From Squalus acanthias (Eukaryota), in contig CM059432.1 of the NCBI GenBank assembly GCA_030390025.1, forward strand, positions 97,156,001 through 97,220,000: a stretch of 64,000 nucleotides of DNA, read 5' to 3'. Made by a program: the position numbers and the translations under genes. The notes beneath the pieces were generated by a model, which saw only the letters and a list, made by a program, of their open reading frames with translations, was not told the DNA's origin and did no database searches. Of this stretch, positions 22,293-64,000 are shown piece after piece (the stretch's first letter is position 1; every line of letters begins with the position of its first letter).

Positions 22293-24700
22293 ATTCCTCA
22301 CTATAGCTGACTCACTGAGAGTGAAGATATTCCTCACTGTAGCTGACTCACTGAGAGTGAAGATATTCCTCACTATAGCTGACTCACTGAGAGTGAAGAT
22401 ATTCCTCACTATAGCTGACTCACTGAGAGTGAAGATATTCCTCACTATAGCTGACTCACTGAGAGTGAAGATATTCCTCACTATAGCTGACTCACTGAGA
22501 GTGAAGATATTCCTCACTACAGCTGACTCACTCAGAGTGAAGATATTCCTCACTATAGCTGACTCACTGAGAGTGAAGATATTCCTCACTATAGCTGACT
22601 CACTGAGAGTGAAGATATTCCTCACTATAGCTGACTCACTGAGAGTGAAGATATTCCTCACTATAGCTGACTCACTGAGAGTGAAGATATTCCTCACTAT
22701 AGCTGACTCACTGAGAGTGAAGATATTCCTCACTATAGCTGACTCACTCAGAGTGAAGATATTCCTCACTATAGCTGACTCACTGAGAGTGAAGATATTC
22801 CTCACTATAGCTGACTCACTCAGAGTGAAGATATTCCTCACTATAGCTGACTCACTCAGAGTGAAGATATTCCTCACTATAGCTGACTCACTCAGAGTGA
22901 AGATATTCCTCACTATAGCTGACTCACTGAGAGTGAAGATATTCCTCACTATAGCTGACTCACTCAGAGTGAAGATATTCCTCACTATAGCTGACTCACT
23001 GAGAGTGAAGATATTCCTCACTATAGCTGACTCACTGAGAGTGAAGATATTCCTCACTATAGCTGACTCACTGAGAGTGAAGATATTCCTCACTATAGCT
23101 GACTCACTGAGAGTGAAGATATTCCTCACTATAGCTGACTCACTGAGAGTGAAGATATTCCTCACTATAGCTGACTCACTGAGAGTGAAGATATTCCTCA
23201 CTATAGCTGACTCACTGAGAGTGAAGATATTCCTCACTATAGCTGACTCACTGAGAGTGAAGATATTCCTCACTATAGCTGACTCACTGAGAGTGAAGAT
23301 ATTCCTCACTATAGCTGACTCACTGAGAGTGAAGATATTCCTCACTATAGCTGACTCACTGAGAGTGAAGATATTCCTCACTACAGCTGACTCACTGAGA
23401 GTGAAGATATTCCTCACTATAGCTGACTCACTGAGAGTGAAGATATTCCTCACTATAGCTGACTCACTGAGAGTGAAGATATTCCTCACTATAGCTGACT
23501 CACTGAGAGTGAAGATATTCCTCACTATAGCTGACTCACTGAGAGTGAAGATATTCCTCACTATAGCTGACTCACTGAGAGTGAACATATTCCTCACTAT
23601 AGCTGACTCACTGAGAGTGAAGATATTCCTCACTATAGCTGACTCACTGAGAGTGAAGATATTCCTCACTATAGCTGACTCACTGAGAGTGAAGATATTC
23701 CTCACTATAGCTGACTCACTGAGAGTGAAGATATTCCTCACTACAGCTGACTCACTGAGAGTGAAGATATTCCTCACTACAGCTGACTCACTGAGAGTGA
23801 ACATATTCCTCACTACAGCTGACTCACTGAGAGTGAAGATATTCCTCACTATAGCTGACTCACTGAGAGTGAAGATATTCCTCACTATAGCTGACTGACT
23901 GAGAGTGAAGATATTCCTCACTATAGCTGACTCACTGAGAGTGAAGATATTCCTCACTACAGCTGACTCACTGAGAGTGAAGATATTCCTCACTACAGCT
24001 GACTCACTGAGAGTGAAGATATTCCTCACTACAGCTGACTCACTGAGAGTGAAGATATTCCTCACTACAGCTGACTCACTGAGAGTGAAGATATTCCTCA
24101 CTACAGCTGACTCACTGAGAGTGAAGATATTCCTCACTACAGCTGACTCACTGAGAGTGAAGATATTCCTCACTACAGCTGACTCACTGAGAGTGAAGAT
24201 ATTCCTCACTACAGCTGACTCACTGAGAGTGAAGATATTCCTCACTACAGCTGACTCACTGAGAGTGAAGATATTCCTCACTACAGCTGACTCACTGAGA
24301 GTGAAGATATTCCTCACTACAGCTGACTCACTGAGAGTGAAGATATTCCTCACTACAGCTGACTCACTGAGAGTGAAGATATTCCTCACTACAGCTGACT
24401 CACTGAGAGTGAAGATATTCCTCACTACAGCTGACTCACTGAGAGTGAAGATATTCCTCACTACAGCTGACTCACTGAGAGTGAAGATATTCCTCACTAT
24501 AGCTGACTCACTGAGAGTGAAGATATTCCTCACTATAGCTGACTCACTGAGAGTGAAGATATTCCTCACTATAGCTGACTCACTGAGAGTGAAGATATTC
24601 CTCACTATAGCTGACTCACTGAGAGTGAAGATATTCCTCACTATAGCTGACTCACTGAGAGTGAAGATATTCCTCACTATAGCTGACTCACTGAGAGTGA
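22293..24700. repeat. 36-bp satellite/minisatellite, about 67 near-identical copies
   Basis: Unit gagtgaagatattcctcacta(t/c)agctgactcact(g/c)a repeated head to tail with no spacers. Confidence 0.98.
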
Positions 24701-60760: not shown

Positions 60761-61060
60761 GGCCCAGAAATTGCTGGAATGGCGCATCACGTGGCGAGCG
60801 ACATGAATTAGACTTTTTACCTCACCCATCTGATTGCACTATATTTGCGCCGCATATTGTTGGAAACATGAATTGATAATGATGCAATGATGTCAATGTC
60901 GCATTTGGGACCTCATAAACCTAATGGTCTAATTCCTTAACCAATGAAAGAGAAGGAAAGAGAAAGAAACAGAGCGAATTACGAGAAGGAAATAGGGTGA
61001 ATTAGATGAATTTAGATACTGAAAGAGAAATAAAGAGAGGGAAAGGAAGAGAATGCATTA
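60761..61060. mobile_element. Left part of a MITE interrupted by the LTR element
   Basis: ggcccagaaattgc start; shares ccttaaccaat and a purine tract with the 15753 MITE; similarity stops at 61060. Confidence 0.6.
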
Positions 61061-62745
61061 TGTAGAATTCGCAATATATCGCGATTTTATTAATAAGGAG
61101 AAAAACACATAGTTTCGTTCAAACAGCTTTTATTTCAGCAGAATGCTGTCAGGTTTTCAAAGTGGACACAAGCAGCTGTAAAATGGCCGCCGCACCTCGT
61201 GGCAGAACATTCTAGACTTTTCAACAGGCAGACAAGATGGCGTTCCAGTAAACATTTGTGCAAGATCGATTAAGACTCAGCACATTGAAGATAATACATG
61301 AGACATCATGGGTTTACAGTATACACATAAATACTGAAATCGGTCTCCCAGGTACGAATAAAAGCTATTGTACCAAGTAATCAAGAACCCATCCAAAGAC
61401 ATTAATATGTAGAATCCCAACGACTCTACGATGAGAGAGCCGTTAGCGGGTAGTTACAGAAAACACTTGGAAGCCCCAAAACCCCTCCGGGGAGAACACC
61501 GACCGATTAAACAATGGGAGAAATATTAACAGGTACTCAGACATTTACGAGTAGCCCCAAAACCCATTAAAACGAAGATCACTCTATACAAGACATTTGA
61601 GCGCCAAACCCTAACAAAAGAAAAGACATTAAGGTTGGGCGGGAAACGGAAGATTTTGCACTATAATTGCAAGCTCCAAACCGTCCATCTTTCTCTTATT
61701 TGGTTGACTCTTATCCTCGTGGCTGCTCCTGTGCTCTTGACTCGCCGTCTTGTTCCTGTTTGCCTCGTGTCTCTTTTCAAAAGACTGTTGAACTTTACGA
61801 TCCGCTCGGATCTACCTCGTGTCGTGTCACGAAGACCTGTGTAGAACTGGGCTCTGAAGCCTTGAAGCGGGCGCACCATCCCGATAAGTCGGTAAACGGT
61901 GTTGGAACCGAAGGCCCGAGATGAGATGAGATGAGAAGAGAAGAAGACCATACTTATCGCCACGGTCAGTAAGCTCCGACCGTGCCTGTAGGTCGAATAG
62001 ACATTTTCCTTGCCAGGAAGACTTCTTTGAGTTCTACAGAACTGACACAGGAAGACTCTTCTTCGAGTTTTATCGAACCGGTGTGAGGGCACAGGAAGAC
62101 TCTTTTTTGAGTAGAGTCGGAACTCCGAGGACAACACAGATCTTCATGACAGCAGACGTTCCAGCCTGCTAGCCGGAGCAGAAAGGAGTAAACAAGTGGG
62201 GCCAGGAGACCCCCTGATCGACACGTGGGCGCTGCGGTGAAAAACATCCGATCAGAGTTTTCGGAATTCTCCGAGTTATCACGAGTGGTGAGCATGAGTC
62301 TCGAATCCTACGAATCTAGCTTAGGACAGATATTGATAGGGGAGGGTTTCAAGTATTAAGGATAATTGTAATGTGTGCCCCCATTTACGATGTGTCGTTC
62401 GTTCCTCGTTTCCCTGAAATTAGTTACATAACTGCATGTAAGATTGTACTGTCATTAATCTGTGCTTATGACATGTATTTCGTAATCTTAAGTATTATGC
62501 AATAAAGATTTTCCATTTCGTACCATTCAACCGAGTCTACCTGAGTTTCATCTCCATTACTGCTCTCGCATCTAAGTCCAGTGTCTAGAACCGTAAGGGC
62601 GAGTGGGTCGAACCACTCACAGGTGTGTCTAGTGCTCCCAGACTGGCTGGAGACCAGAACAGGCAACAAGGCCTAAACCCGCACTAGCACCCGGGCTGCA
62701 CAGAGCCACACGAATCTCACAGGCTGAGAGACAAAAACCCTTACA
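61061..62745 (+). mobile_element. Candidate 5' LTR (~1685 bp; left boundary uncertain)
   Basis: TGTA...TACA termini, AATAAA at 62501, PBS 5 nt downstream; alternative starts TGTAA at 62367 and TGTAAG at 62437. Confidence 0.65.
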
Positions 62746-62749
62746 GAAA

Positions 62750-64000
62750 ATGGCGACCGCGGCAGGACACTGGCAGCGAGAGGGCAGTGTGTTAGACTTT
62801 GGTGTGAATGTACGAAATGTTATGCAGGAAAAGATAGCAGATTATGTGTTCAGAAAGGTAAATCTAACTAAGAAATGGATAAGTGACCTGTTAGCGGATA
62901 AGAGTCCACTAGAGGCAGCCGAGAGGTGGACAGATAGTAAGGAACATAAAATGACAGTCGAGAAAGCAGTCTGGTTAATGTGTTACAAAAGGCAGGTCCA
63001 GATTTCAAACCAGGTCATTACAGCGCAAACAGCTCGGATCAGGCATTTAGAGGAGGAAATGGATGAGAAAGTCTCTGGAGGGGAGTTGCTCATCAGGAAT
63101 TTAAGTGCGCTGCACCGAGAACGCCAGGAAATCACCAGTCACCACAAAGCAAAAATAGATTACCTCGAGTGTCAGGTCACTGAGGCAAAGTTAAGTGAGG
63201 GCAGACTAAAGGAACGATGTGCCCGCCAAGCTGCCCAAATAAGAGCCCAGGAAGAGAGCTTAACGGGGGTTAGGGCGGCATATAAGATGGCCCTTGAGGA
63301 TAAATTTCAGGGGGCCGATCATAGCGCCTGCCAAAAGGAGATAGAGCACCTTAAAAGGGCCGTGAACAAAGCGCACGGCATGGTGTGCCTTATCAGTCCG
63401 TCAGCACACCAGCCGCTAGTAGATGAGGAGTTTCAGAAATTCCCACCAAGTAAAGCAAAGGAAGTATTAGCCACTATGCCCTCCGCGCCACCCAGCTATT
63501 CGGAAACCTGGGTAAGGGAGGAAGTAGTAGAAGAAATGAAAGAGCCCACTGAGGGAGAAGTGGAAAAGGGACCGTTGTGTCCAGTTACGGGTATAAAAAG
63601 GGGCCCAAACGGGAACGGTGGGGAACCAGGGGATCTCCTCAACCAGCTTGTGTTGCCTCACAGCTCACACCAGCTGAGAGTTATGATAAATCACGTACGG
63701 AAGCTAACCGAGTCAGACGACCCTTCCGTACATTTCAGAGAAGTTGAGCAAACCGCAGCCATTAACGGCTGCGATGATGGGGAAACAGCAAAAATGCTAT
63801 TATTTTCGTTAGGCAGTTCAATCCTTCAGTGTCTCTCGGACGAGAGCAAGAGGGGAACCAAGACATATGAGGCATTAAAAAATGAGGTCCTAGAAGTGTT
63901 GGGGATGGACGATGAAGGTCCGTTTGCTAGAGTGGGACAGACAGTGCAGATGGAGGGAGCACCCCCGAAGGTTTTTGCCGACAGGCTGTGGCCAGTATAT
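62750..64000 (+). CDS. gag: Gag-like polyprotein, 417 codons with no stop, running off the window
   Basis: Hand translation MATAAGHWQREGSVLDFG...; coiled-coil-like region, DHSACQKEIEHLK, PSAPPSY and a capsid-like region (DDPSVHFREVE..KMLLFSL..YEALKNEV..FADRLWPVY); sits directly at the PBS. Confidence 0.88.
   Translation, partial: MATAAGHWQREGSVLDFGVNVRNVMQEKIADYVFRKVNLTKKWISDLLADKSPLEAAERWTDSKEHKMTVEKAVWLMCYKRQVQISNQVITAQTARIRHLEEEMDEKVSGGELLIRNLSALHRERQEITSHHKAKIDYLECQVTEAKLSEGRLKERCARQAAQIRAQEESLTGVRAAYKMALEDKFQGADHSACQKEIEHLKRAVNKAHGMVCLISPSAHQPLVDEEFQKFPPSKAKEVLATMPSAPPSYSETWVREEVVEEMKEPTEGEVEKGPLCPVTGIKRGPNGNGGEPGDLLNQLVLPHSSHQLRVMINHVRKLTESDDPSVHFREVEQTAAINGCDDGETAKMLLFSLGSSILQCLSDESKRGTKTYEALKNEVLEVLGMDDEGPFARVGQTVQMEGAPPKVFADRLWPVY
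62751..62768 (+). promoter_or_regulatory. Primer-binding site complementary to tRNA-Arg(UCG) 3' end
   Basis: TGGCGACCGCGGCAGGAC is the reverse complement of GUCCUGCCGCGGUCG-CCA, a vertebrate tRNA-Arg(UCG) end as I recall it. Confidence 0.88.

Follow-up and report, generated by a model that had tools for sequence, protein, structure and literature searches.

A Gag protein encoded at the end of the window carries the seven residues PSAPPSY, in which a P(T/S)AP motif and a PPxY motif overlap by one common proline. The window is the whole 64 kb stretch of DNA that was analysed. The heptamer is encoded by CCCTCCGCGCCACCCAGCTAT at 63479-63499 on the forward strand. It is in frame and forms residues 244-250 of the gag open reading frame; the earlier note had described the motif at this position. 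The overlapped motif is probably a late domain. The PPxY half would then be the older occupant of the site and the PSAP half an addition made in one lineage, within a family in which such motifs change place.

Table 1 Features of the element within the window.
Feature	Position	Strand	Basis
Likely 5' LTR, ~1.7 kb, TGTA...TACA ends	61061..62745	+	ends read from sequence, contig depth
AATAAA within likely 5' LTR	61357 and 62501		
gag ORF, 417 codons, open to window end	62750..64000	+	open reading frame
Likely primer-binding site, tRNA-Arg type	62751..62768	+	degenerate 18-base pattern matches; overlaps first gag ATG
N-terminal long helices / coiled coil, residues 68-207	62951..63370	+	AlphaFold2 model
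Predicted disordered linker holding the motif, residues 209-300	63374..63649	+	pLDDT <50
PSAP, P(T/S)AP-type motif, residues 244-247	63479..63490	+	sequence; likely TSG101-UEV ligand by analogy
PPSY, PPxY-type motif, residues 247-250	63488..63499	+	sequence; likely NEDD4-family WW ligand by analogy
First capsid lobe, residues 303-390	63656..63919	+	AlphaFold2 fold, VIA-align

Late domains are textbook features of retroviral Gag, endogenous retroviruses included. The endogenization of koala retrovirus is said to have involved a late-domain change. Late domains in Gag are thus well known, and so is the overlap itself.

P(T/S)AP binds the UEV domain of TSG101, PPxY binds the WW domains of NEDD4-family ligases, and many retroviruses have both (PMC8402826). 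The overlapped late domain of Ebola VP40 can restore budding of a minimal Gag (PMC8402826). The earlier note had named these binding partners and the VP40 overlap, in agreement with this source (PMC8402826). Late motifs are found in MA and p12 of MLV, in p15 of HERV-K and, as a PSAP, at residues 284-287 of foamy virus Gag (PMC8402826, PMC8278194, PMC3874623). The release of HERV-K(HML-2) uses the PTAP in p15 (PMC3874623). The frog endogenous retrovirus XtERV-S carries a PSAP (PMC8278194).

Both halves of the heptamer match their consensus exactly. Single halves are common: all six frames of the 64 kb window together contain 6 P[TS]AP and 16 PPxY. The combined pattern P[TS]APPxY occurs once, and that is this motif. 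The codons of PSAP contain two CpG.

Shuffling excludes a chance origin of the heptamer locally. The overlapped form was produced by 0 of 200,000 shuffles of the whole protein, 6 of 200,000 shuffles of a 63-residue linker and 3 of 400,000 shuffles of the 27 residues around the motif; these counts hold for one window alone, out of many that were scanned. Independent support comes from motif enrichment across the family, counted with the window omitted.

The set used for this holds one protein per cluster of more than 300 amino acids (n = 7). The window is omitted, as are 5 proteins redundant within their clusters and 16 fragments that are shorter. The seven relatives are not fully independent, since P0001 and P0003 are 81% identical. 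Shuffling followed four schemes, one global and three confined to blocks of 40, 20 and 12.

P[TS]AP is observed 4 times, against 0.11-0.22 expected, and 4 or more occurrences were reached in 0 of 5000 shuffles under each of the four schemes. The 11 anagrams of this motif have 1 match altogether. For PPxY the enrichment looks modest, with 3 observed against 0.18-0.51 expected (P 0.001-0.011); its anagrams have 3 matches altogether, two of them to YxPP. At least one late motif is present in 4 of the 7 relatives, and the other 3 have none. Late motifs are thus enriched throughout the family at shifting places, which are the linker, the start of the capsid and the region after the zinc knuckle.

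The overlapped form itself is a different matter. The named relatives of the open reading frame come from one skate, three sharks and one frog. Retrieval gave 28 proteins, and 11 of them reach across the linker (P0001, P0023, P0024, P0025, P0002, P0003, P0004, P0026, P0015, P0022 and P0017), representing 7 lineages. The earlier note had proposed conservation among related elements as a check, and for the overlapped form the outcome is negative: none of the 11 has it.

The motif site lies equally far from a conserved His/Cys anchor in several relatives. There P0003 reads PPSY, all four Rhinoraja proteins (P0001, P0023, P0024 and P0025) read SPSY, and P0002 reads APSF. In the Heterodontus Gag P0015, which is 25% identical, a PPAY aligns to the motif and a PSAP follows ten residues on. 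This order, PPxY and then PSAP, is that of HTLV-1 and M-PMV.

Other motifs lie elsewhere in the protein. P0002 has a PTAP and a PSAP after the zinc knuckle, and P0022 a PPNY before the knuckle. P0003 and P0024 have a PTAP near the likely start of the capsid, in P0003 perhaps inside it. The PTAP of P0024 is PTAL in P0001 and P0025. Neither type of motif is found anywhere in P0001, P0004 and P0017.

In three near relatives the heptamer stands out as a conserved island: 4-5 of its 7 residues are identical, versus 6-9 of 28 on one side and 5-6 of 24 on the other, or roughly a quarter.

Further relatives were also sought. Viral contigs scanned with queries A2 and P0022, together with metagenomes, held no related locus. 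There was no Gag relative in 61 metagenome loci matching a motif-flanking pattern, nor in 24 viral loci matching the primer-site pattern. A short-fragment search with residues 195-310 found none.

The protein itself is, going by its predicted fold and its relatives, the Gag of an LTR retroelement. Its frame is the first one behind a likely LTR and primer-binding site. Apparently complete relatives are about 490-650 amino acids long and have one CCHC knuckle. The zf-CCHC knuckle is present in 7 of 10 aligned members; for the window copy it would lie past the window end. The Gag assignment of the earlier note thus stands, on the capsid fold, the zinc knuckle in 7 of 10 members and best fold matches that are retroviral Gag.

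An AlphaFold2 model, built on a 10-sequence alignment, has helices at residues 68-185 and 192-207, with a block-mean pLDDT above 87 over residues 71-170. The motif is predicted to lie in an unstructured stretch between this coiled coil and the capsid, which is the usual site of a late domain. The model also agrees with the earlier note, which had placed the motif between coiled-coil-like and capsid-like regions. Pro278 (63581) is a possible first residue of the mature capsid.

The coiled coil is closed by a His-x-x-Cys (63314-63331, residues 189-194) with a helix after it. H191 and C194 are near-invariant as far as the frog relative. This could possibly be a metal or disulfide clamp.

The predicted capsid lobe was compared to known structures with VIA-align. 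It matches the CA-like domain of PEG10 (Z 8.8, rmsd 3.6, 74 aligned), Copia (Z 8.1), dArc1 (Z 8.1) and the CA-CTD of MLV (Z 7.6, rmsd 2.6, 74 aligned). Some 25 capsid rows besides PEG10 also align to these residues. An MLV-like capsid N-domain was considered and rejected, as orthoretroviral N-domains only rank 43-46 with a Z of about 4.5.

Foldseek with the window model returned no match at E <= 0.001, and Pfam had nothing above its cut-off for the window protein (SlyX, at E 0.047, is below it). ESM Atlas held generic Gag clusters only. The capsid-nucleocapsid part of the relative P0027 has 9 BFVD matches at E <= 0.001, and 8 of these are named retroviral Gag or Gag-Pol. The top matches are a toad endogenous retrovirus Gag and the Gag of walleye epidermal hyperplasia virus 2. 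The P0027 capsid has two compact lobes, resembling the capsids of Arc, Copia and foamy viruses. As to membership in Retroviridae rather than Ty3/Gypsy, the best viral fold matches are retroviral Gags, but the capsid lobes match Arc, Copia and PEG10 equally.

How the motif might work can be sketched by analogy. The PPSY would be a ligand of NEDD4-family ligases, and the PSAP one of TSG101. These partners would bring in ESCRT, which would cut the neck of a budding particle. Binding, exposure of the motif and a role in release are all inferred here.

The closest parallel is human LITAF, also called SIMPLE. It has a PPSY at residues 20-23 with a PSAP overlapping it, in a flexible region, and so contains the same seven residues as the window motif (PMC5142333, PMC3514783). 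The PPSY of LITAF pulls down NEDD4, and TSG101 binding and endosomal sorting both depend on its PSAP (PMC5142333, PMC3514783). Because LITAF binds both partners, the heptamer can engage TSG101 and NEDD4. LITAF differs in being a host protein of endosomal sorting and not of viral budding, and no homology is claimed beyond the motif.

The earlier note went further and held that the motif implies extracellular particles. The motif by itself does not carry that conclusion, which is weakened by the endosomal use in LITAF and by foamy-virus Gag, which is released only together with Env (PMC7828637). In addition, neither of the first two methionines of the window Gag is followed by a glycine at position 2, so there is no myristoylation glycine. 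Given this, Gag likely reaches the membrane via its coiled-coil end or via Env, as in foamy viruses. Particle release would likely need more than Gag.

It is conceivable, if rather unlikely, that the motif binds TSG101 and NEDD4-type ligases for intracellular ends, or that it is a leftover in an element that copies itself within the cell, and that there are no infectious extracellular particles. The ends in question could be budding into endosomes, trafficking or ubiquitin-driven turnover of Gag. By analogy, LITAF puts the same motif to use in endosome-to-lysosome sorting, and the PPxY of the adenovirus capsid is reported to serve entry (PMC2841620). The lack of a myristoylation glycine fits this as well. 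So do the thousands of slightly different contigs, which suggest heavy germline amplification, and the close skate relatives whose gag frames are open without a canonical PPxY. The late motifs of retroviral Gags that have been tested do, however, act in release (PMC8402826, PMC3874623).

Two further readings concern which residues matter. It could be that only PPSY counts, that PSAP arose by chance before an existing PPxY in a proline-rich linker, and that the overlap is incidental or private to a subfamily. Once a PPxY is there, three further residues suffice, and at this site PSAP is found in 0 of 11 relatives versus PPxY in 2 of 7 lineages. Yet it is P[TS]AP that is the more strongly enriched across the family (4 versus 0.1-0.2), suggesting repeated selection for a TSG101 site; the reading is quite unlikely. 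Very unlikely is that the match to late-domain consensus is incidental, and that the conserved unit is x-P-S-[YF]-x-x-x-W (63488-63511, residues 247-254), kept for another job such as a protease site or another partner. This core persists at the same place in the window, in P0001, P0023, P0024 and P0025, in P0003 and in P0002, even where PPxY is broken. The island may thus be kept for another reason, and the core may, from its sequence pattern, be a second signal. Such an incidental match would leave the exact heptamer unexplained, given the 6 in 200,000 linker shuffles, and also the PPAY and PSAP of P0015, which come without the tryptophan core, and the family-wide enrichment. A late domain is still the preferred reading.

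As a probable late domain, the motif can be compared to known systems. Ebola VP40 has the identical overlap geometry (PMC8402826). It is a filovirus matrix protein with Thr and Glu where this Gag has Ser and Ser, and its function was shown by experiment, whereas here it is predicted. Several retroviral Gags have two types of motif: PPPY and PSAP in M-PMV, PPPY and PTAP in HTLV-1, and PSAP, LYPAL and PPPY in MLV (PMC8402826, PMC3874623, PMC8278194). As in the window Gag, these often lie between the N-terminal domain and the capsid, endogenous viruses included. The motifs in those Gags are separate, whereas here they overlap with PSAP first.

Prototype foamy virus Gag is similar in its N-terminal coiled coil, its proline-rich linker with a PSAP and its lack of a myristoylation signal (PMC7828637, PMC8278194). 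It also has a two-lobed compact capsid, and the PFV capsid aligns with Z 5.3-5.8. Unlike foamy Gag, the family has a CCHC knuckle in 7 of 10 members, and the window Gag has a PPxY.

The snakehead-retrovirus clade and the lokiretroviruses are fish-type endogenous retroviruses. The Gag of Bik-1 shares an N-terminal coiled coil and a capsid domain, but is described with a glycine-rich end and not a zinc knuckle (PMC12193657, PMC7947760, PMC12067270). The comparison of the window Gag with four Gag proteins of the lokiretrovirus supplement was made by eye only. The available part of this supplement contains no PSAP, PTAP, PPSY or PPPY, although line breaks in it can split motifs. In their available parts, PMC12440569, PMC12067270, PMC7947760, PMC13524379, PMC5210030, PMC10435555, PMC12193657, PMC11341202 and PMC7196810 do not mention late domains for these lineages. 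Neither the overlapped form in retroviral Gag nor late domains of endogenous retroviruses in sharks were the subject of any paper found; this is a weak negative from mainly open-access literature, in which one search missed even LITAF.

For the most part, the finding confirms that this abundant element has the build of a budding virus. Motifs of the ESCRT-recruiting type now extend to a little-studied family of Gags in cartilaginous fishes, to which a frog relative belongs, and the compact overlapped form is now seen in a Gag. A bolder claim would be that no retroviral Gag before this one had an overlapped late domain of the Ebola and LITAF type, and that a deep lineage of fishes arrived at it independently, in a family where motifs are repeatedly gained, moved and lost, and where the state of the motif marks subfamilies with enveloped particles versus intracellular ones. 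That is doubtful. Still, the seven residues could be useful as a marker: their gain and loss across copies, set against retention of env, could show when an endogenous virus stops leaving cells.

The element belongs to a many-copy family. This follows from 7,524 contigs in run X3 on a stretch of 3.2 kb, most of them 90-99% alike or better; the summed depth of these contigs is not a copy number. The window copy departs from nearly all contigs at several places and therefore has private changes, and its frame is still open. Among the 40 variants listed, out of 470, none falls within the heptamer, and the nearest are at 63458 and 63537. One X3 contig that spans the motif has 9 differing letters and 3 gap positions, with their places not given. 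Within the 64 kb window there is no second copy of the element. There is also no env or pol in the window, which ends inside gag.

Contig depth climbs sharply between 61014 and 61120 (one bin), and a contig from run X11 departs at or before 61061. The likely LTR ends come from the sequence, and the partner LTR presumably lies outside the window. An Rfam search of the LTR found nothing above chance. The retrotransposon Troyka was rejected as an identity: its termini are 5'-CG...CG-3', and the LTR ends inferred here are TG...CA. A GA-rich flank of the LTR (60921-61060) recurs in several further contigs, where the sequence upstream of it differs. Within the LTR, the region 61842-62132 is variable in length; it has short direct repeats (62014-62112) and joints at which 45-71 bases are missing from other copies.

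The likely primer-binding site starts five bases past the likely LTR. The degenerate 18-base pattern of this site matched 24 viral loci; 8 of the 24 are the 3' end of a tRNA gene, and 6 of those are tRNA-Arg. The gag ATG overlaps the primer-binding site (62750-62768), so the first residues of Gag are set by the tRNA. Relatives start with MATAAG or MATTKG, fitting two alternative primer tRNAs.

Elsewhere in the window, remnants labelled as LINE and Harbinger from a reading of their translations are abundant, which gives it the look of a large vertebrate genome. Together with the skate, shark and frog relatives, this makes a cartilaginous fish the likely host. A tandem array at 22293-24700 consists of 67 copies of a 36-bp unit; the copies are 98% alike, and both strands of the array have open frames.
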